This document shows, one piece after another, positions 6,047-42,482 of a stretch of 64,000 nucleotides of DNA. The position numbers and the translations under genes are program-made. This stretch comes from Candidatus Aenigmatarchaeota archaeon (GTDB lineage Archaea > Aenigmatarchaeota > Aenigmatarchaeia > CG10238-14 > SpSt-28): NCBI GenBank assembly GCA_036824555.1, contig DAISZX010000001.1:644-64643 (forward strand), given 5' to 3'. How positions within the stretch are numbered: the stretch's first letter is position 1; every line of letters begins with the position of its first letter. Below the pieces are notes generated by a model, which ran no database searches, was not told the origin of the DNA, and was given only the letters and a program-made list of their open reading frames with translations.

Positions 6047-6118
6047 GGGCCGGTGGTCTAATGGTAGGACGCCGCCTTCGCAAGGCGGAGGCTCCGGGTT
6101 CAAATCCCGGCCGGTCCA
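6047..6118 (+). tRNA. tRNA-Ala (anticodon CGC)
   Basis: 72-nt cloverleaf folded by hand: acceptor GGGCCGG/CCGGTCC with G3:U70 Ala identity pair, anticodon loop TTCGCAA, T-arm CCGGG-TTCAAAT-CCCGG, A73; no encoded CCA. Confidence 0.85.
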
Positions 6119-23898: not shown

Positions 23899-24011
23899 AG
23901 CCCCGTCGTCTAGCGGCCAAGGATACCGGGCTTTGGTCTATTCAACCAAAGCTTTGATAAAGGATGATAGGAAGAAACCCGGGGACGGCGGTTCGAATCC
24001 GCCCGGGGCTA
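23899..24011 (+). tRNA. tRNA-Gln (anticodon TTG) with about 41-nt intron after position 37
   Basis: hand fold: acceptor AGCCCCG/CGGGGCT, A73, anticodon stem CCGGG/CCCGG, loop CTTTGG, intron containing CCAAAGCTTTG that pairs the loop, T-arm GGCGG-TTCGAAT-CCGCC. Confidence 0.7.
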
Positions 24012-34966: not shown

Positions 34967-35701
34967 ATGAAAATTCCTTTCGATCCGATAGAAAGAGCTG
35001 AATTTTTTGAGAAAGTTGTAATGAAGGATAGTAAGAGGAGATATTATAGATTTAGGTTTGCGCCATATTATGGTGGAATAGTTACTGCCGACACTCTTGG
35101 CTGCTGTTTTCTTTGCGCTTATTGTTGGAATTACTTTAAGAATTTAAATCCAAAGAATTTTGGAGAATTTTATTCTCCAGAAGAAGTTTCTAGAATAATG
35201 ACAGAAATAGCAAGCAAGAAAAAATGCATAAAGTTTAGGATAAGTGGTGCAGAGCCGATACTTGGCAAAAATTCATTTCACCATCTTTTGAAAATACTTG
35301 AGCTGATCAAAGAAAATTTTAATGAGTTTGAATTCATCATAGAAACAAATGGATTAATTCTCGGATATTATCCAGAACTAATAAAAGAGTTAAGGCCATA
35401 CAAAAAATTTATTTTTGTGAGAGTATCTTTAAAAGGTTGGGATGAATATTCTTTTGAGAAAATTTCTGGCGCAAGCGGAGATTATTTTGCTTATACAATA
35501 GAAGCCCTTAAGAAATTAAGAGACAACGACATAATAGCTTGGCCTGCTGTGATGTTTGAGGTATTTGGTAAAAATGGTTTGGAAAAGATAAAGGAAAGAT
35601 TGAGGAAAGAGAGTATTAATACTGACATTGAAGTCGAATATCTGGAAAAATATAAGTTTGTTGAAGAAAATTTGAAGAAGAGAGGATTATTCTTTTTTTA
35701 A
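34967..35701 (+). CDS. small radical SAM domain protein
   Basis: GCCFLCAYCW contains CxxxCxxC; ISGAEP SAM-binding-like motif; 244 aa; 6 nt downstream of speH. Confidence 0.6.
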   Translation: MKIPFDPIERAEFFEKVVMKDSKRRYYRFRFAPYYGGIVTADTLGCCFLCAYCWNYFKNLNPKNFGEFYSPEEVSRIMTEIASKKKCIKFRISGAEPILGKNSFHHLLKILELIKENFNEFEFIIETNGLILGYYPELIKELRPYKKFIFVRVSLKGWDEYSFEKISGASGDYFAYTIEALKKLRDNDIIAWPAVMFEVFGKNGLEKIKERLRKESINTDIEVEYLEKYKFVEENLKKRGLFFF

Positions 35702-37999
35702 TTTATGCTCAATTTCATAAACAAGCTTTTTAGTTTTTGTTACAGTATCAGGATTTACTGATATCGAATCGATGCCGCATTTAACTAAAAATTCTGTTAT
35801 TTCAGGGTAGAAAGAAGGAGCCTGCCCGCATATAGATACGGTAATTCCTTTTTTGTGCGCTTTCTTAATCAACTCTTTCATTGCTACTAAAACTGCTTCA
35901 TTTCTTTCATCAAAATACCCCATGTTTGCCAAAATTGATGAATCTCTATCTATTCCTAAAACAAGTTGAGTCAAGTCGTTGCTACCAATTGAGAATCCAT
36001 CGCAATATTTAGCAAACTTTTCTGCTAGGAAAATTATGCTTGGTACTTCAGCCATCAGCCAAACTTTGAAAGTTTCACTTCTTCTCAAACCCTCCTCTTC
36101 CATTATTTTCAAGACCTTCTCTAGTTCCCAAGTAGTTCTGACGAACGGCAACATTACCCAGACATTATCTAGTTTGTATTCTTCCCTAACCTTTCTAATT
36201 GCCCTGCATTCTAGTCTAAAGGCCTTTTCAAATTCTGGAGAAATATATCTAGAAACTCCACGCCACCCTATCATTGGATTTGCCTCTACAGGTTCATACT
36301 TTTCTCCGCCAATTAGCTGTCTATACTCATTTGTTTTGAAATCACTAAACCTAACAACAACAAATCTCGGATAAATAGCTTTTGCAACCATTGCTATTCC
36401 TTCAGCAAGCTTATCGATATAATTTTGTTCTTTACCCTTCTCAATCATGTAATTAGGATGCTCTTTAATCCATTCAGCTATTATAAATTCAATTCTCATC
36501 AATCCTATTCCCTCAAAAGGTAAATCTTTGTATCTTTCAATTTCTGTCGGAACACCAAGGTTCATCAATATTTTTGTTTTTGTTTCTAGTTTTCTAGCCT
36601 CTTCCGTAGGAACTTCCATGATTTTTTCCCTTTCTAATAACTCTTTAACTTCCCCATCATATACAAAACCGTTTCTAGAGTCAAGCGTTACAATCATTCC
36701 ATCTTTCAAGACTTCTAGTGCATTTGATACACCAACTATACAAGGAATACCAAGTTCTCTTGATACAATCGCAGCGTGACTAGTAACTCCACCCTCGCTC
36801 GTTATTATACCGCTAGCAATTTTCATGAATGGAACCCAATCTGGAGAAGTCATCTTAGTAACAAGTATGTCTCCCTTTTCTATCTTTTTTCTTGCCTCCT
36901 CTATTGTTAAGCAAACTTTAACCTTTCCTATTGTTGCTCCAGGAGAAGCAGGCAAGCCTCTTAAAATTGGAGGCTTTTCTACAACAATTTTTGCTTCCTT
37001 TTTCTCGTAGAATACAGTAACTGGCCTAGATTGCACCAAATAGACTTTTCCATTTTCACTAGCCCATTCAAAATCTTGTGGAAACTTATAGTGATCTTCC
37101 AACTTTTTTGCTAGATTCCAAAGTTGCTTTATTTCATCTTCAGTTAAGCACAAAGCTTTTCTCATGTCTTCAGGAACTTTTATTTCTTCCAATTCTCCAT
37201 CCTTTTTTGTTATTTTCATCTTTTCTTTAGTACCGATATGAGTTTCTACAACATTTCCAGTATTCTTATCTATAACATACGTGTCAGGATTCACCTCACC
37301 ACTGACAACAGCTTCTCCCTGCCCATAAGAAGCTTCTATAACAATTTTACTTCTTTCTCCCGTAACAGGATGTATAGTAAAACCTATTCCAGCTTTATAT
37401 TTTCCGTTCAAATATTCATCTTTACTCAAAACTCCAAGTTGTTTTTGGACAACAACGGCAATATAAACCTTTTCGTGCTTAAATCCTTTTTGCTGTCTGT
37501 AAAAAGTTGCTCTTGCAGTAAACAAGCTTGCCCAGCATTTTTGTACAGCCCTTAAAACATCCTCCTTTCCTTTAATGTTTATTAAACTTAGTTGCTGACC
37601 AGCAAAACTAGCTTCTTTTACGTCTTCTGCCGTAGCAGAACTTCTGATAGCAACATACTCTTCATCTTTGCTAAACTCCTTAGATAATTTTTCGTAAGCT
37701 TCGATTATTTCTTTTCTTATTTCTTCTGGCATCTTTGCATTTTCAATTAATTCCCTAATTTTTTTCGTATTTTCCTCAAGATTCGTAGGATTATTAAAAT
37801 CTGTTTCTTTTAGAATTTGAATGATTTTTCTTTTAAGTTTGGTTCTTTTAAGAAATTCTTTATAGGCTTCGGCAGTAACAACAAAGGCTTGTGGAACAGG
37901 TAGGCCAGCATTATACATTTCTCCTAAATTAGCTGCTTTACCTCCAACCAAAGGCAAATCATTTTTTGACAATTCTTTTAACCACTTTATAAATTTCAT
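35687..37999 (-). CDS. ppsA: phosphoenolpyruvate synthase (pyruvate, water dikinase)
   Basis: 770 aa; PEP-utilising enzyme N-terminal ATP-grasp, phospho-His domain (GGVTSHAAIVSRELGIPCIVG) and C-terminal PEP/pyruvate TIM barrel. Confidence 0.9.
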   Translation of the reverse strand: MKFIKWLKELSKNDLPLVGGKAANLGEMYNAGLPVPQAFVVTAEAYKEFLKRTKLKRKIIQILKETDFNNPTNLEENTKKIRELIENAKMPEEIRKEIIEAYEKLSKEFSKDEEYVAIRSSATAEDVKEASFAGQQLSLINIKGKEDVLRAVQKCWASLFTARATFYRQQKGFKHEKVYIAVVVQKQLGVLSKDEYLNGKYKAGIGFTIHPVTGERSKIVIEASYGQGEAVVSGEVNPDTYVIDKNTGNVVETHIGTKEKMKITKKDGELEEIKVPEDMRKALCLTEDEIKQLWNLAKKLEDHYKFPQDFEWASENGKVYLVQSRPVTVFYEKKEAKIVVEKPPILRGLPASPGATIGKVKVCLTIEEARKKIEKGDILVTKMTSPDWVPFMKIASGIITSEGGVTSHAAIVSRELGIPCIVGVSNALEVLKDGMIVTLDSRNGFVYDGEVKELLEREKIMEVPTEEARKLETKTKILMNLGVPTEIERYKDLPFEGIGLMRIEFIIAEWIKEHPNYMIEKGKEQNYIDKLAEGIAMVAKAIYPRFVVVRFSDFKTNEYRQLIGGEKYEPVEANPMIGWRGVSRYISPEFEKAFRLECRAIRKVREEYKLDNVWVMLPFVRTTWELEKVLKIMEEEGLRRSETFKVWLMAEVPSIIFLAEKFAKYCDGFSIGSNDLTQLVLGIDRDSSILANMGYFDERNEAVLVAMKELIKKAHKKGITVSICGQAPSFYPEITEFLVKCGIDSISVNPDTVTKTKKLVYEIEHKLKKE

Positions 38000-38032: not shown

Positions 38033-38713
38033 ATGAGAGTTGGTGTTCTGTTTAGTGGGGGTAAGGATTCAACCTTGGCTTTAATTAAAGCTAGCAGAAT
38101 GCATGACGTAAAATGTTTAATTTCGATTATACCTGAAAATCAAGAGAGTTATATGTTCCACGTTCCGAACATTTTGCTAACAAAATATCAAGCCGAAGCA
38201 ATGGAAATTCCAATAATACAAAAAATCACAAAAGGAGAAAAGGAGAAAGAGTTAATTGATTTGAAAAAAGCAATCGAAGATGCAAAGGAAAATTTTGAAA
38301 TTGATGGAGTTGTTAGCGGAGCAATTAAATCAAATTATCAATATTCGAGAATTAAGAGAATTTGCGATGAATTAAATCTTGAATTGATTTTGCCACTTTG
38401 GCAAATGGATGAAATAGAAGAGTTAAAGGAAGTAGTAAGAGAGGGAATTATTGCAATTATTGTTTCAGTTTCATCTTACCCATTAACAAAAGACTTTCTT
38501 GGAAGACAGATAGATGAATCAATAATTAAAAAATTTATTGAATTTAGAGAAAGATTCGGTCTTAATCCTTCTGGAGAAGGAGGAGAATACGAGACCTTTG
38601 TTACAGATGCTCCTGTTTTCAAGAAAAAAATTTTGATTGAAAATTATGAAATTTTTTACGACGAAAATTGGGGGATAATGAATATAAAAAGCGTTAAGTT
38701 GATTGGAAAATAG
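38033..38713 (+). CDS. diphthine-ammonia ligase Dph6-like (MJ0570-family PP-loop ATPase)
   Basis: VLFSGGKDS PP-loop and GEGGEYETFV motif of the MJ0570/Dph6 family; 226 aa. Confidence 0.7.
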   Translation: MRVGVLFSGGKDSTLALIKASRMHDVKCLISIIPENQESYMFHVPNILLTKYQAEAMEIPIIQKITKGEKEKELIDLKKAIEDAKENFEIDGVVSGAIKSNYQYSRIKRICDELNLELILPLWQMDEIEELKEVVREGIIAIIVSVSSYPLTKDFLGRQIDESIIKKFIEFRERFGLNPSGEGGEYETFVTDAPVFKKKILIENYEIFYDENWGIMNIKSVKLIGK

Positions 38714-38725
38714 TTTAAACTGAAT

Positions 38726-39988
38726 TTATACTTCCAAGCTAGCAAGAAAAAGTGGCACGTCTTCTCTTGTTAGAAGATGTATTTTTTCTAAATGTTTTGG
38801 CTTAATCCAGCTTCTGCCAACTCTTTTTACTTCTATTCCAATCTGTTTCTTACCTAATTTCACGACTATATCAACTTCGCTTCCATTTCTCCAGTAAAAA
38901 GTTTCATACTTTCGTGATAAATGAGACGCTACTGTAGCTTCTAGAATTGATGGTTCATCTTTCTCTGCTCTCACAAATTCACAAATAGTTTCATACAGAA
39001 ATGGATCAGTTATATGGATTTTTTTATTCTTTCTTGAAACAACTTTCGAGTCGGGAGATAGAAAGTTTAATATTTCGACCACAAACAACTTTTTCAAATC
39101 CTCTACATATGCTTGTGTTGTATGGGGAGATGCTATCGAAGTCTCCCTTGAAATATTTAGCCAACTAATTGGAGTGCCCCTGGAATTTATTATGTAAGAT
39201 AAAATTTCTTTCATGTAACTTTCATTCCTATTAAATTTTCTAAAATCGTTTTTTAACCAATCTATATAAATCTTTCTTGTCTCATAAGAAATTTTCCCTT
39301 TAGAATAGAATTCAATAATTGGTAAGGGGAAACCACCAGTATAAAGATAATTGTTGAAAAGTTGAACTAGAATTGATAGGTGAACTCTATTAGCACTCAT
39401 TGCCCTCTCAACATCTTCAACATCTCTCCTAACTACTTCAATATTTTTAATACAATAAACATAATCTCCAAAGCTAAGTGGATAAAAATAAATATCTATT
39501 CCTTTTCCTCGCCTTCCAGGAAAATATTCTTTCTGTTTTAAAATATCTAAGCTTGCCGATCCGCTAACAATTATAACATCGTTTTTAAATATTCCCTTAT
39601 CTATTCTAGCTTTAACAGCTCTGTACCATTCATCAACAAAGGTTATTTCATCCAAAATTATAAAAGAAGACTTAACTTTGTTTGCATTCCTAAAGGCAAT
39701 GTAGTTATCCAAAATTTCGCCCAATTCTCTAAAATCTGTTAATTCATCGCAAGAGTAGTAAAATATAGATTTTGGGTCGTTTCCACCTAAAATGAGCTCA
39801 TGAATGTATATTTTCAAGGCTGTTGTTTTTCCTACTTGTCTAGGTCCGACTAAAAAATTGAGGGAGAATGGTTGAAAACTGAATAGCCTTAATATGGGTG
39901 GAATCCATTTTATTGGCGATGTTTCCCACTCCTCATATTTCCTATCCTTCTCCCCATACCACCAAGGATTTTGATCTTCCATTTGCAA
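38726..39988 (-). CDS. AAA+ ATPase (AAA_14 N-domain, DUF4143 C-domain family)
   Basis: VGPRQVGKTT Walker A, IILDEITFV Walker B; the track start at 39988 is a TTG, the first ATG is at 39982. Confidence 0.75.
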   Translation of the reverse strand: MQMEDQNPWWYGEKDRKYEEWETSPIKWIPPILRLFSFQPFSLNFLVGPRQVGKTTALKIYIHELILGGNDPKSIFYYSCDELTDFRELGEILDNYIAFRNANKVKSSFIILDEITFVDEWYRAVKARIDKGIFKNDVIIVSGSASLDILKQKEYFPGRRGKGIDIYFYPLSFGDYVYCIKNIEVVRRDVEDVERAMSANRVHLSILVQLFNNYLYTGGFPLPIIEFYSKGKISYETRKIYIDWLKNDFRKFNRNESYMKEILSYIINSRGTPISWLNISRETSIASPHTTQAYVEDLKKLFVVEILNFLSPDSKVVSRKNKKIHITDPFLYETICEFVRAEKDEPSILEATVASHLSRKYETFYWRNGSEVDIVVKLGKKQIGIEVKRVGRSWIKPKHLEKIHLLTREDVPLFLASLEV

Positions 39989-40035
39989 TATTATTGCAAA
40001 TGCATTTAAATAGTATTTGCAATATTATTGCAAAT
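39981..40035. promoter_or_regulatory. two tandem copies of a 21-bp palindrome ATTTGCAATATTATTGCAAAT flanking a TTTAAATA TATA-like box
   Basis: copy 1 39981-40001, copy 2 40015-40035 (exact repeats, each near-perfectly self-complementary); TATA-like 40005-40012 lies about 23-30 nt upstream of the ATG of the minus-strand AAA ATPase. Confidence 0.45.
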
Positions 40036-40260
40036 ATACATATTTTTAAGGTCATGGTTTATGATATACCTTACAATTTTTGATAGTTTTTCAGGAGAAA
40101 GGAGAGTGTTGAAAACTGTATTATAACACTGAATCAAAAGTCTGTGAGAACCAAAGGCATTTTGTGTTCTGTAAGGAAAATAACTATTTTTATTACTTTT
40201 TGAGTGTATCAGCAACAAAAACACCTTCCTTTTTTAGCTATTTCTGCAGACCTTATTATC

Positions 40261-40277
40261 AAAAAAAAAGGGGGGGG
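40261..40277. repeat. A9G8 homopolymer tract
   Basis: aaaaaaaaagggggggg read directly; a G8 run is conspicuous in this AT-rich sequence. Confidence 0.9.
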
Positions 40278-40317
40278 CGAAAGCTTTATAAGCTCATAGA
40301 AGAAATTCTAAAATATA

Positions 40318-40360
40318 GATCCTCAGCGTGGATCTTTTTTTTAGATCCATGCTGAGGATC
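40318..40360 (+). promoter_or_regulatory. 18-bp inverted repeat (GATCCTCAGCGTGGATCT / AGATCCATGCTGAGGATC) with T7 loop; stem-loop in the leader of the DGQHR gene
   Basis: arms complementary at 17 of 18 positions (the mismatch is G-U in RNA); preceded by TATA-like ttctaaaatata, followed by GGAGGTG RBS and the ATG at 40389. Confidence 0.5.
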
Positions 40361-40388
40361 TATTAACTAGCATAGGAGGTGGTATAAG

Positions 40389-41486
40389 ATGAAAATTAGG
40401 GCGATTGAATTTAATCAACATGGGAAGAGATTTTACCTTGCTGCAATGAAGGCCAAAGACTTAGTTAGTAGATATAAGGTCGATGTCTGGACACCAGAAA
40501 ATGATAGTGGGTATCAAAGAGTTTTATCTGCATCTAGAGTTAAATCCTTCGCTAGGTTTGTAATGGAAAAGGGCATCTCGCCACTTTCAATACTTCTAAA
40601 CATAAGAGACGTAGATAAGGTCCGATACGAGAATGATCATCTAATACTACCAGATGACATTACCCTATGGGTAGTTGATGGTCAGCACAGATTGGAGGGA
40701 CTAAAAGAAGCTATACAAACTGACGCAAGTCTTAAAGAATTCGAGATTCCGGTGGTTATAATGCAGGAAAGAGAGGTGTATGAAGAAGCTAAACAGTTTG
40801 TAATAATAAACCGTACACAAAAGGGGGTCAGGTCCGATCTCGCTGAAAGATTTCTCCAAAAAATGGTAGAAGAGGAAGGCCGACGTAGATTAATCGAACA
40901 AAGAGATAGAGGCATTCTGAGAGAAGTTTTGAGAGGAATAGAGTGGAAATATAAAGCGATAAAAATAGTTGACGAATTAAATACCAATGAAGATTCTCCA
41001 TGGAAAGATTTGATAAGACTCCCAAACACACCAAGGGGTAAAACTATAATTGCACAAAAATCTTTCATGGATTCACTCCAACCAATACTCACAGATGCTT
41101 TCTTCGAAACAAAAGACGAAAATCTTATAGCTAAAGCCCTCATAAACTACTGGAACGCGATTAAAGAATTATGTAGAGAAGCCTTCGAAGATCCAGAAGA
41201 GTACGTAATTCAAAAAACTACGGGAGTTTTTGTACTACACAAGATATTTCCAAAGGTGACTGAATATTGTGTCAATGAAAAGGGTAGAAGGGTACTAACT
41301 AAAGAGAAATTTAAAGAGGTTCTTAGAAGACTAGGAGATGCTATGAGAAGTGAGTATTGGCATCGACAGGGAGAAGCCGGGTTGCGTGGAACCAGCCAGA
41401 AAACTTTCAATTTATTGGCACAAGAATTAAAAGAGAGACTAGAAGTAGAAGAAAGTCCATTGAGTCGTCAAGAAATTGTAGTTTAA
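40389..41486 (+). CDS. DGQHR-domain protein (DndB-like, ParB/Srx-fold)
   Basis: LWVVDGQHRLEGLKEA signature; 365 aa; GGAGGTG RBS; composition noticeably more GC-rich than the flanks. Confidence 0.75.
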   Translation: MKIRAIEFNQHGKRFYLAAMKAKDLVSRYKVDVWTPENDSGYQRVLSASRVKSFARFVMEKGISPLSILLNIRDVDKVRYENDHLILPDDITLWVVDGQHRLEGLKEAIQTDASLKEFEIPVVIMQEREVYEEAKQFVIINRTQKGVRSDLAERFLQKMVEEEGRRRLIEQRDRGILREVLRGIEWKYKAIKIVDELNTNEDSPWKDLIRLPNTPRGKTIIAQKSFMDSLQPILTDAFFETKDENLIAKALINYWNAIKELCREAFEDPEEYVIQKTTGVFVLHKIFPKVTEYCVNEKGRRVLTKEKFKEVLRRLGDAMRSEYWHRQGEAGLRGTSQKTFNLLAQELKERLEVEESPLSRQEIVV

Positions 41487-41612
41487 TAACTTTGGTTTTT
41501 TACTTTTTTATTTTTTGGAGCAAAGTATAGAAGTCAGCGGAAGCCAAATTATAATGTCTTGGTAGCCTAATACGATCCTTTTTCTAAGAAATCCATTTTA
41601 TGTTTGATTATT

Positions 41613-41724
41613 CGCCGGGGGTGGGATTCGAACCCACAAGGGCGTTAAAGCCCACCGGTTTTCTTCATATCTCTCAGATCTCGATAACTCGAGACCGGTG
41701 CCATACCAGTTAGGCGACCCCGGC
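41613..41724 (-). tRNA. tRNA-Ser (anticodon CGA), type II, with about 28-nt intron after position 37
   Basis: hand fold of reverse complement: acceptor GCCGGGG/CCCCGGC, G73, anticodon stem CCGGT/ACCGG, loop CTCGAG, intron TTATCGAGATC... pairing the loop, variable arm GGGC-TTTAAC-GCCC, T-arm GTGGG-TTCGAAT-CCCAC. Confidence 0.7.
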
Positions 41725-41750
41725 CCATAATAAGTTATTACTAGCAAAAT

Positions 41751-42482
41751 TTAGAAAACTTCAGTCCCAGAGTGTTTTCCTTCTATAGCACTTATTATTT
41801 CCTTTGGATTTCTGCCGTCAATAACTATAAGTTTAATTCTACTTTTCTTTAAGAGCTTTGCAGCCTTTAAGTCAAATAGCCTATATTCTCCAGGCCTTTG
41901 AGGATTTTTTGAAATTATTTTTATAAAATCATCATAAGTTAGTCTTTCAAATTTTTTAGCATCCTTGAACTTATTCGGATCTTTATCATAAATTCCATCT
42001 ACATTCGTTGCGTTGATAACAACATCTGCTTTGATCAAAGAGGCAAAGTAGGCGGAATCAAAATCTGTAGAACAACCAACATCATAGCCAGCACAAACAA
42101 GAACTTTCTTTCCAAAATGTTTTTTGACCTCTTTTGAAGCTTCTTTTAAACTTTTCCACTTAACTAAGTAAGAATTTTTCACTAGTGTAGAAAAAGTTGC
42201 AGCATTTATGTGAGTTGCCATTATTCCTATAAAATCAAGCATTTCATTACTTGCCTTTGCTTTTCTTGCAATACTTTGATAAATTCTTGCCGTACTTCCG
42301 CCACCACAGACGACAATAATCTTGTGTTCTTTTGAAATTTTATTTACAATATCAGCATATTTTTTAAAATTATCATAGCTTAACTCTTTGGTCAATAGCG
42401 AGCCTCCAATAGAAATTACTACTTTCATATTAGTTTTATGCTTAATAATTATATAAGGTTGGTAGTTTGAGGTGACTCTCAT
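41751..42482 (-). CDS. pyrH: uridylate (UMP) kinase
   Basis: amino-acid-kinase fold MKVVISIGGSLL...VVCGGG; the true start is probably the internal MKVV at about 42431. Confidence 0.85.
   Translation of the reverse strand: MRVTSNYQPYIIIKHKTNMKVVISIGGSLLTKELSYDNFKKYADIVNKISKEHKIIVVCGGGSTARIYQSIARKAKASNEMLDFIGIMATHINAATFSTLVKNSYLVKWKSLKEASKEVKKHFGKKVLVCAGYDVGCSTDFDSAYFASLIKADVVINATNVDGIYDKDPNKFKDAKKFERLTYDDFIKIISKNPQRPGEYRLFDLKAAKLLKKSRIKLIVIDGRNPKEIISAIEGKHSGTEVF

Follow-up and report, generated by a model that had tools for sequence, protein, structure and literature searches.

A lineage-specific insertion between Dph6 and tRNA-Ser(CGA) in an Aenigmatarchaeota genome carries two genes that are probably unrelated accessory cassettes

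A 2,899-bp segment (positions 38714..41612, to which no strand is assigned) separates the Dph6 stop codon from the 3' end of tRNA-Ser(CGA) in a DPANN archaeon (Aenigmatarchaeota), and comparison with relatives identifies it as an insertion specific to this lineage. All positions refer to the 64-kb stretch of the genome that was analysed, hereafter the window. The segment contains just two genes, both of a ‘conflict type’ and neither of them a recombinase: an AAA+ ATPase gene and, divergent from it, a gene for a stand-alone DGQHR-domain protein. The original prediction treated this islet as one module. We consider it probable that this variable slot between Dph6 and tRNA-Ser(CGA) has instead received two unrelated, self-contained single-gene accessory cassettes, and the AAA/DGQHR pairing recurs in none of the ~90 DGQHR-family loci and six AAA contexts compared.

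The left flank of the insertion is the conserved diphthamide synthase gene Dph6 (38033..38713, + strand; PF01902, 242 bits). The right-hand boundary is an intact tRNA-Ser(CGA) gene with a 27-nt intron (41613..41724, − strand; Rfam, 46.4 bits), beyond which lies a conserved gene of the amino-acid-kinase family (41751..42482, − strand; PF00696, 118.8 bits). ARAGORN misses the tRNA at its default settings and, with introns allowed, returns tRNA-Ser(cga) with a 27-nt intron; the intron-containing tRNA-Ser predicted downstream of the DGQHR gene is therefore supported by both Rfam and ARAGORN, at a distance of 126 nt from the DGQHR stop codon instead of the 127 bp first given. An independent assembly (L001) has the same AAA–DGQHR–tRNA–kinase order at 99.4% identity and reproduces the junctions. 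In the two closest relatives, L008 and L009, the order PEP synthase–Dph6–tRNA-Ser–amino-acid kinase–UPF0047–Hef–XPF is kept, and the Dph6 ORF ends 0 bp from tRNA-Ser(CGA) in L009 and overlaps it by 35 nt in L008. The flanking genes share 74–89% amino-acid identity with those of the window (74–77% for the Dph6 orthologues and 86–87% for the kinase), and the tRNA gene itself is 97% identical. Since Dph6 abuts or overlaps the tRNA in both of these genomes and the order of the flanks is conserved, the segment is a lineage-specific insertion, as the proposal of a small acquired islet had anticipated. Both islet genes are absent from all four genomes in which the slot was compared (L008, L009, L010 and L012), and in the outgroups L010 and L012 the slot is occupied by a ThermoDBP-RP gene, so that it is found empty, differently filled or filled with the islet. 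L008 and L009 group as sisters (Hef 93% identical), with the window branching next (86–89%). Gain in the lineage of the window is the most parsimonious history, because the outgroups hold ThermoDBP-RP in place of the islet genes and the two genomes with an empty slot are sisters.

Acquisition had also been argued from base composition, with an estimated 42–43% GC inside the DGQHR gene, a GC-richer islet and the use of codons rare elsewhere in the window. Computation did not uphold these estimates. The DGQHR gene has 37.9% GC (z-score +1.3) and the whole islet is not GC-rich (0.342 vs 0.344 for the window). GC3 is 0.310 in the gene and averages 0.306 over the genes of the window; the log-likelihood of its codon usage has a z-score of −1.1, and ‘rare’ codons make up a fraction of 0.030 vs 0.019 ± 0.013. 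The gene does rank in the top 5.5% of 1.1-kb windows by GC, owing to GC1, which reflects amino-acid composition. Thus neither atypical composition nor atypical codon usage marks the islet as acquired, and the host-like GC3 and codon usage indicate that the acquisition was old or that the donor was similarly AT-rich.

Indistinguishability from host genes in GC3 and codon usage could alternatively mean that the lineage inherited both genes from its ancestors and that its relatives deleted them, with no acquisition at all. We judge this highly improbable. Losses would have had to occur independently at least two or three times (in the L008+L009 clade, L010 and L012), and a different gene, ThermoDBP-RP, fills the outgroup slot. 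Moreover, genes that are 65–78% identical to the AAA gene lie on contigs whose annotation names other archaeal phyla, and the top match of the DGQHR protein is just 57% identical, in a MAG annotated as Freyarchaeota; such similarities are typical of patchy horizontal transfer and count against an ancestral origin. Somewhat less remote, although still unlikely, is that a virus or plasmid used the 3' end of tRNA-Ser(CGA) as its specific integration site and then decayed into the islet, losing its integrase and att sites. Mobile elements integrated at tRNA genes are recognized by an integrase gene together with a direct att repeat, a second copy of the 3' end of the tRNA at the distal border. The proposal that the tRNA 3' end served as the integration site found no backing of this kind: there is no integrase in the inserted segment, short-word blastn over 38600-41612 did not detect any part of the tRNA-Ser 3' end, so that the partial direct repeat suggested for the islet was found nowhere in it, and comparison of the islet borders gave no att or terminal repeats, direct or inverted (p = 0.2–0.9 vs shuffles). 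A decayed element would fit the insertion exactly at the tRNA 3' end and the three states of the slot among relatives, and AAA homologues lie 361 bp downstream of tRNA-Ser(UGA) in L014 and 260 bp from tRNA-Val in L017. Counts of nearby tRNAs in three further AAA contexts and among the DGQHR loci (0/78) go against it, however, and a search of a viral contig collection yielded neither a close relative of the gene nor a copy of the hairpin at 40315-40363. In addition, the tRNA abuts Dph6 in relatives, so that any change in this tiny interval looks ‘tRNA-adjacent’.

The AAA gene (38726..39982, − strand) encodes 418 aa from an ATG at 39982; the program-called ORF begins at a TTG at 39988 instead. 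Both Pfam domains exceed their cut-offs (AAA_14, 86.3 bits against 27; DUF4143, 54.7 bits against 28.1), which confirms the predicted DUF4143-type AAA ATPase divergent from the DGQHR gene, and the protein matches the PADLOC defence candidate PDC-S01 with E = 1.2e-34. It has a Walker A motif GPRQVGKT (46–53), a Walker B motif FIILDE (107–112) and a D371...E384-V-K386 motif. DUF4143 has been classed as PD-(D/E)XK (PMC3424549). The product joins an AAA+ ATPase to a PD-(D/E)XK-like domain at its C-terminus and is a full-length member of COG1373/PDC-S01 with no feature that distinguishes it. Its homologues (417–418 aa, 65–78% identical) come from contigs that annotation assigns to several archaeal phyla; every one is solo, and together they occupy six different housekeeping contexts.

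The AAA gene has a conserved promoter/operator (39981..40039, − strand), in which two identical 21-nt palindromes, ATTTGCAATATTATTGCAAAT, at 39981-40001 and 40015-40035, surround a TATA-like TTTAAAT. The second palindrome overlaps the AAA ATG, an arrangement that points to a leaderless mRNA. At the nucleotide level, homology to solo AAA loci (77%) spans precisely the coding sequence and 55 nt of promoter, stopping at 40039. The palindrome–TATA–palindrome layout recurs upstream of the homologues in L014, L017, L109, L111 and L113, in five different contexts, whereas the motif occurs nowhere else in the 64-kb window. The palindromes that had seemed unusual are thus explained as the promoter/operator that this gene shares with its homologues; we are not aware of a published description of such a promoter for COG1373 or PDC-S01. 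Because no regulator gene accompanies the AAA gene in any context, we infer that the AAA protein represses its own gene.

The DGQHR gene (40389..41486, + strand) encodes a protein of 365 aa with an N-terminal ParB/Srx-fold domain, probably an NTPase, and a C-terminal all-helical domain. The block VVDGQHRLEG, on which the original assignment was based, corresponds to residues 95–104, and profile searches establish the protein as a bona fide DGQHR family member: TIGR03187 scores 127.3 bits (cut-off 58.85) and PF14072 (DndB) 70 bits (cut-off 29.1), the Pfam match being confined to the N-terminal half (residues 4–158). The family signature consists of a QR pair, the DGQHR pentapeptide and FxxxN (PMC4619093); the corresponding motifs GYQR (41–44), DGQHR (97–101) and FVIIN (137–141) are invariant in 26 aligned homologues. 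A high-confidence model with ParB/Srx structural matches demonstrates the ParB/sulfiredoxin fold, and the helical C-terminal half has no structural match to a nuclease. The invariant motif residues and published work on DpdB, DndB and SspE suggest that the protein has NTPase activity. DndB binds DNA under modulation by ATP and regulates its own expression (PMC4507180), and DpdB forms homodimers whose ATPase activity is stimulated by DNA (PMC10164549). Binding of ATP and GTP has been shown for a DndB-like protein (bioRxiv 10.1101/2025.10.10.680097), and in SspE, GmrSD and Menshen the DUF262/ParB domains serve as sensors (PMC12065111).

The window protein resembles DndB in its ParB superfamily fold and in the DGQHR, QR and FxxxN motifs, and Pfam places both in its DndB family; the two-domain plan of the protein is that of DndB, DpdB and NsnA. 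It belongs to none of the characterized types that we considered. DndB proper (equivalog TIGR03233) scores 27.9 bits against 328, with an alignment limited to residues 81–143; DpdB proper (equivalog NF041060) scores 64.9 against 300, although the profile aligns over residues 1–319; and the DNA phosphorothioation-associated DGQHR protein 1 (TIGR04172, DGQHR_dnd_1) scores 70 against 450. DpdB, the ATPase of the 7-deazaguanine Dpd system, is reported to have a DGQQR motif (PMC10164549) where the window protein has DGQHR. In contrast to the DUF262/GmrS-type sensors (GmrSD, BrxU, SspE, DndI) and Menshen NsnA, the protein carries neither a fused DUF1524/HNH nuclease domain nor, within the window, an effector gene in cis; it also gives no Pfam DUF262, DUF1524 or HNH match at E ≤ 0.01 and so does not fit the GmrSD/SspE type (DUF262 + DUF1524). 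Canonical ParB, the CTPase clamp of partition systems, is defined by a ParBc domain with the GxxRxxA box, an HTH, a C-terminal dimerization domain and a ParA partner. The window protein resembles ParB at the level of fold only, having neither ParBc nor HTH Pfam matches and no adjacent parA-like gene.

The gene was predicted to be an orphan, and among 71 ORFs of the 64-kb window PADLOC detected no partner gene of the dnd, ssp or dpd type. The scan matched the AAA gene (PDC-S01), the DGQHR gene (weakly DpdB-like) and the conserved Hef gene (generic SF2 helicase); the DpdF match, the only Dpd-type match besides the DGQHR gene, is the generic helicase domain of Hef. Thus dndCDE and dndA, with which the phosphorothioation regulator DndB (dndBCDE) is encoded, are absent from the window, and the dpdA (TGT-like) and dpdC neighbours of DpdB are lacking near both the window gene and its homologues. 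Orphan status is typical of the whole clade, in which 0 of 47 non-redundant loci have adjacent dnd, dpd or ssp genes. The homologues (~365 aa, in archaea and bacteria) are often followed by co-directional genes for GHKL ATPases (4–5 loci), SLFN_AlbA_2, TPR+Mrr_cat or HNH proteins, and these candidate partners start 3–75 bp downstream, whereas the window copy is solo. Other neighbours include AbiE, PIN, type II and type III restriction-modification genes and BstA. Many homologues, for example L002, lie among housekeeping genes without a defence neighbour, and the link to defence islands is therefore only partial.

All the features originally named in the ~400-bp intergenic gap (palindromes, an A9G8 tract and a long hairpin) are present at 39981-40363. 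Besides the two identical 21-nt palindromes, it contains the A9G8 homopolymer tract (40261..40277, + strand) directly upstream of a putative DGQHR promoter. The tract reads A5G6AG in L001; this length difference between the two assemblies may reflect either divergence between strains or misassembly of the homopolymer. The putative promoter is a BRE/TATA-like element, GCGAAAGCTTTATAAG (40277..40292, + strand), read from the sequence by the general archaeal promoter consensus. Between its TATA box and the Shine-Dalgarno sequence GGAGGTGG (40375-40382, + strand) lies a near-perfect hairpin or palindrome with 21-bp arms and a T-rich loop (40315..40363, + strand; dG −42.8 kcal/mol, z = −6.75, with 0/200 shuffles folding as well), which might act as an operator or as a 5'-UTR attenuator. 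No comparable inverted repeat is conserved in front of the DGQHR homologues, which weakens the case for autoregulation of this gene.

Could the two genes nevertheless work together? The DGQHR NTPase might sense foreign or modified DNA and the divergent AAA+/PD-(D/E)XK protein might be its nuclease effector, a two-gene system comparable to the split GmrS/GmrD pair or to Menshen NsnA and its effectors. The two genes lie next to each other in the one slot where both were gained, DGQHR homologues often precede nuclease- or ATPase-effector-like genes (HNH, Mrr, GHKL), and the AAA protein has a PD-(D/E)XK-like domain and is a PDC-S01 candidate. We find this reading quite improbable: the pairing is unique, with no AAA homologue in ~90 DGQHR-family loci and no DGQHR gene in the 6 AAA contexts; the AAA gene brings its own conserved promoter, with homology ending at 40039; and the two genes are divergent, whereas the candidate partners of the homologues are co-directional and close downstream. 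Equally doubtful is that the DGQHR protein is the regulatory or ATPase subunit of a Dnd-, Dpd- or BREX-like modification system encoded outside the window. The characterized DGQHR proteins DndB and DpdB do act alongside modification enzymes, the DpdB profile aligns across nearly the full length, and the 64 kb are only part of the genome. Against this, the scores fall far below the DndB, DpdB and DGQHR_dnd_1 cut-offs, none of the 47 same-clade loci has such a partner adjacent, and known modification systems keep their genes clustered, in addition to which DPANN genomes are small. Only marginally better is the chance that the ~365-aa stand-alone DGQHR clade is the NTP-dependent DNA sensor of an undescribed modular defence family with swappable effectors (GHKL ATPase, Schlafen/AlbA_2, TPR-Mrr, HNH), in which the solo copy acts alone or has recruited the AAA+/PD-(D/E)XK protein; if true, such recruitment would constitute a new two-gene system.

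Under the reading that we prefer, two single-gene cassettes, cassette 1 (38726-40039) would be the COG1373-type gene, encoding an AAA+ ATPase joined to a PD-(D/E)XK-like domain and travelling with its own promoter, where the AAA protein would repress its own gene through two palindromic operators placed around the TATA box and overlapping the start codon. Cassette 2 (about 40040-41612) would encode the stand-alone DGQHR protein, its ParB/Srx-fold NTPase domain and helical domain forming an NTP-gated, probably dimeric, DNA-binding switch, for which DndB, as an ATP-modulated DNA-binding autoregulator, serves as the model. This switch may sense or mark DNA in mobile-element conflicts, or regulate transcription as DndB does, and the 49-nt palindrome over the predicted transcription start may be an autoregulatory operator. 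DNA binding, autoregulation and a role in defence are deductions for the islet proteins; a defence or anti-MGE role is plausible, and the DGQHR protein most likely serves in conflicts with mobile elements, as a DNA-binding sensor or regulator gated by NTP.

The locus is a real but fairly ordinary accessory-gene gain that does not overturn current understanding. It is a cleanly bounded gain in a reduced DPANN genome, for which empty, differently filled and filled sites can be compared, and both families involved, the stand-alone DGQHR clade and COG1373, are widespread. The COG1373 promoter/operator, conserved across loci of several annotated archaeal phyla, offers a directly testable case of archaeal autoregulation. 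Members of the stand-alone DGQHR clade consistently lack partners of the Dnd, Dpd and Ssp types and are often followed by variable effector-like genes, which makes the clade a reasonable candidate for defence screens.

A search with the Dph6 protein (window 38033-38713, plus strand), in which each species was represented by a single genome, gave six loci. Five belong to Candidatus Aenigmatarchaeota MAGs, and the two best matches were 74-77% identical to the window Dph6. In the loci of the closest relatives, L008 and L009, tblastn with the window genes recovered the order PEP synthase, Dph6, tRNA-Ser(CGA), amino-acid kinase, UPF0047, Hef and XPF, and both the AAA gene and the DGQHR gene were absent. 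In L009 the Dph6 ORF stops at 6098, directly before the tRNA at 6099; the L008 ORF overruns 35 nt into the tRNA. The tRNA sequences of the window, L008 and L009 share 97% identity. Since Dph6 abuts or overlaps the tRNA in these loci, which are without the islet genes, the window has 2,899 additional bases, from 38714 to 41612. The Dph6 frame of L008 (9962-10720) has no stop before the opposite-strand tRNA-Ser, and the mechanically called ORF also begins upstream of the orthologous start.

The slot between Dph6 and the tRNA is filled in the more distant relatives, L010 and L012, by a 215-aa ThermoDBP-related gene (L010:7249-7896 and L012:10673-11323, both minus strand; PF10015 93.9 bits, PF20754 66.6 bits). 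This gene was not present in the window, L008 or L009, and the slot is therefore known in three states. Hef and kinase identities make L008 and L009 sisters (91-93%), with the window next (86-89%) and L012 outside (64-71%). Gain on the window's lineage is the parsimonious reading, and the slot has been altered at least twice. The AAA-DGQHR-tRNA-kinase order recurs, with 99.4% identity, on a separately assembled 2.5-kb ENA contig of the same locus, L001, so that a chimeric assembly is unlikely. The gene gain in this DPANN genome is thus real and has clean boundaries. The nearby PEP synthase is broken after about residue 130-155 by an insert of about 1.3-1.4 kb in L009, L012 and L013; the insert is missing from the window (35687-37999), L008 and L010, and in L009 (3520-4935, minus strand) it encodes an intein (Intein_splicing 64 bits) that includes a homing endonuclease of the LAGLIDADG type (LAGLIDADG_3 51 bits).

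The original prediction of an acquired islet was right because of this synteny with relatives, and not on the compositional grounds that it offered. We compared GC, GC1-3, codon log-likelihood and rare-codon fraction over 72 ORFs and in sliding windows. The DGQHR gene, said to reach 42-43% GC, has a computed GC of 37.9%, and the whole islet stands at 34.2% against 34.4% for the window. The gene's GC3 is 0.310, where window genes average 0.306 +/- 0.038; in codon-usage log-likelihood it is 1.1 SD under the mean, and its fraction of rare codons, claimed to be distinctive, is within 1 SD. Taken alone, the gene falls in the top 5.5% for GC among equal-sized windows because of its first-position GC, hence its amino-acid composition. 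The islet is not set apart by these measures, and composition was dropped as a sign of transfer.

The AAA gene (38726-39982, minus strand) is divergent to the DGQHR gene and encodes, from an ATG at 39982, a 418-aa protein annotated as an ATPase with AAA_14 and DUF4143 domains, in agreement with the neighbour anticipated from the sequence. The protein carries Walker A and Walker B motifs and a C-terminal D...EVK motif that falls inside DUF4143, a domain classed as PD-(D/E)XK by Steczkiewicz et al. (PMC3424549), and it matches the PADLOC candidate PDC-S01 (E = 1.2e-34). Its nearest relatives share 78% protein and 77% DNA identity, and further relatives at 62-70% are annotated as Thermoplasmatales, Nitrososphaerota, Thermoproteota, Bathyarchaeia and Brockarchaeota MAGs, a spread that is typical of genes passed on horizontally. 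Homologues stand solo among housekeeping genes in six different loci, and DNA homology between the AAA loci and the window spans exactly 38727-40039, which takes in the CDS and the 55 nt before it. Everywhere the upstream layout is one of two palindromes, the first TTGCA-N7-TGCAA and the second ending in the ATG, with a TTTAAAT or TTTATAAAT box between them, and it is retained in genomes of 27% to 47% GC. The palindrome motif, with the putative operator sequence TTTGCAATAWTATTGCAAA, is present in the window only upstream of the AAA gene. This shared layout and the uniqueness of the motif identify the palindromes, which had been taken for unusual structure, as the conserved promoter/operator of the AAA gene. 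The transcript is probably leaderless. No regulator gene travels with the AAA cassette, from which we infer that the AAA protein may autoregulate its own gene.

The other elements described in the gap, an A9G8 tract and a long hairpin, are also present. A BRE/TATA-like GCGAAAGCTTTATAAG at 40277-40292 forms a putative promoter upstream of the DGQHR gene and would put the start of transcription roughly at the first nucleotide of a 49-nt palindrome (40315-40363), after which comes the Shine-Dalgarno GGAGGTGG. The upstream hairpin has a folding energy of -42.8 kcal/mol (z = -6.75), and the palindrome is a candidate operator, or a candidate 5'-UTR attenuator with a U-rich loop. A comparable palindrome is not conserved upstream of DGQHR homologues, so the one in the window is a local feature; miRNA and sRNA matches from an Rfam E-value scan of the intergenic regions were rejected as spurious, being hairpin-driven and far below gathering scores. 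The A9G8 tract (40261-40277), just upstream of the putative promoter, reads A5G6AG in L001, a length difference that could reflect slipped-strand variation or a homopolymer assembly error. Between window 39719-42212 and L001 there are 10 substitutions and 2 indels over the 1,396 bp that flank the DGQHR gene, with zero differences in its 1,098-bp CDS (chance about 0.003 if differences were evenly spread). One indel is a 2-nt change in the tRNA-Ser intron (41670-41671); the L008 and L009 introns are 25 nt. The predicted intron-containing tRNA-Ser(cga) (41613-41724, minus strand; 27-nt intron) was recovered by Rfam (46.4 bits) and by ARAGORN with introns allowed, and is overlooked by default ARAGORN. 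At 23899-24011 (plus strand) ARAGORN with introns allowed reported a 'tRNA-Stop(tta)' with a 40-nt intron (Rfam tRNA 47.2 bits); by eye the anticodon loop, CTTTGGT, is that of an intron-containing tRNA-Gln(UUG), and the suppressor call is probably a mis-parse.

The ORF at 40389-41486 (plus strand) encodes 365 aa with VVDGQHRLEG at residues 95-104, and its assignment to the DGQHR domain was borne out by HMM searches against TIGR03187 (127.3 bits, cut-off 58.85) and Pfam DndB PF14072 (70 bits, cut-off 29.1). The protein is well under the equivalog cut-offs for DndB (27.9/328), DpdB (64.9/300) and DGQHR_dnd_1 (70/450), and PADLOC gave weak DpdB and DndB matches only. Homologues form a uniform family of about 345-390 aa, with 696 matches in an indexed search and 228, 828 and 1,674 representative clusters at E <= 1e-30, 1e-10 and 1e-3, respectively; they are annotated as archaeal (Freyarchaeota, uncultured archaeon) and bacterial (Binatia, Chloroflexota, Fimbriimonadia), and the best match is 57% identical. 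Invariant in 26 aligned members are GYQR, DGQHR, E133/A134, F137...N141, K145, L151, E153 (part of a conserved DLAER segment), together with several C-terminal residues. All three motifs that define the DGQHR domain (PMC4619093) were found in the alignment. The AlphaFold model is confident (pLDDT 90.5, pTM 0.84). For the C-terminal helical half we found no solved counterpart, nuclease motif or Pfam match, and a sequence search of the PDB with the protein gave nothing significant, a PadR-like match at E = 0.58 being disregarded.

Homologous loci carry a co-directional gene 3-75 bp downstream of the DGQHR gene in about 20 cases, and its identity is variable: a GHKL ATPase of HATPase_c_3 type (L019, L030, L041, L046 and, weakly, L071), SLFN_AlbA_2 (the L005 group), TPR+Mrr_cat (L069), HNH (L040), ARPP-1 (L106) or, in the closest subclade, a protein of about 98 aa without a Pfam match. 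Other neighbours include AbiEi/AbiEii, PIN/VapB, type II and type III restriction-modification genes and BstA; some copies, such as that of L002, lie among housekeeping genes only. The window copy is solo, with just 126 nt before the tRNA downstream. The ~98-aa protein, with a conserved core ...RGIHSVFSGFNQAFREYFP...VRPVKGGVMIY..., adjoins the DGQHR gene on either side in about 10 loci of the subclade nearest the window protein (L002, L019, L030-L034, L038, L043, L053, L065), and no trace of a remnant of this partner gene was found in the window.

A decayed tRNA-integrated element would explain the position of the islet at a tRNA 3' end, a kind of site that the original prediction called classic for integration. 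This unlikely reading conflicts with at least one test: the inserted segment holds no recombinase gene, short-word blastn of the islet with the tRNA and right junction as queries found no partial tRNA copy, and when all border pairs were locally aligned, no direct or inverted repeats rose above shuffled controls at the outer or internal AAA/DGQHR borders. These results do not support site-specific integration into the tRNA, and with Dph6 and the tRNA in contact in relatives, any insertion here is bound to look tRNA-adjacent. A 12-nt match from the repeat search lies inside the AAA CDS, away from any border. As a family trait, tRNA adjacency was rejected, with a nearby tRNA in 0/78 DGQHR loci and only 2/5 other AAA contexts. 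Of the closest AAA_14-DUF4143 homologues, one lies downstream of a tRNA-Ser(UGA) with a 66-nt intron, 361 bp from its 3' end (L014:5487-5640), another lies 260 bp from a tRNA-Val (L017:5669-5740), and three further homologue loci are without a tRNA nearby. Viral origin was rejected as well: a viral contig scan gave motif-level relatives only (35-42% identity over ~60 aa), the DGQHR-upstream hairpin was not found in viral contigs, and PHROGs and BFVD returned superfamily-level matches only (ParB, DndB, GmrS). That the islet genes are ancestral and were lost in relatives is a further unlikely account, and it too conflicts with at least one test.

The side-by-side genes could also be read as one module, a coupled DGQHR/AAA-nuclease system, but this unlikely reading is not supported and again conflicts with at least one test. 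The two genes are independent and were not found together at other loci: a DGQHR gene was never beside the AAA homologue in six AAA loci, and an AAA_14-DUF4143 gene, like a tRNA within 600 bp, was absent from our DGQHR context sample of 47 non-redundant metagenomic loci and three database loci. Less probably, the DGQHR protein might be the cofactor of a modification system encoded elsewhere, as its DndB and DpdB resemblance would allow; here also there is conflict with at least one test, and dnd, dpd and ssp genes were absent from the same sample. A PADLOC scan of 71 window ORFs found no Dnd, Ssp or Dpd component, as originally predicted; matches to PbeA, DrmD, Cas3 and DpdF were rejected as defence partners, all of them stemming from the helicase domain encoded by Hef, a conserved gene.

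By analogy with its family, and from genomic context, the DGQHR protein would most likely be a dimer that binds DNA under NTP control and serves as sensor or regulator when the cell is in conflict with mobile DNA. DpdB, which has the same two-domain plan as the window protein, forms homodimers with an ATPase activity that DNA stimulates, and a DNA tunnel is predicted in it (PMC10164549). Binding of both ATP and GTP is known for a DndB-like protein (bioRxiv 10.1101/2025.10.10.680097), DndB has been described as an ATP-modulated autoregulator (PMC10853773), and the DUF262/ParB domains of SspE, GmrSD and probably Menshen serve as NTP-dependent sensors that license nucleases (PMC12065111). Overall, the islet is made up of two independent members of known, functionally uncharacterised families, and the novelty of the locus is modest. 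Its by-products, a phylum-spanning operator of the COG1373 cassette and a pattern of conserved DGQHR plus swappable effector, suggest straightforward experiments.
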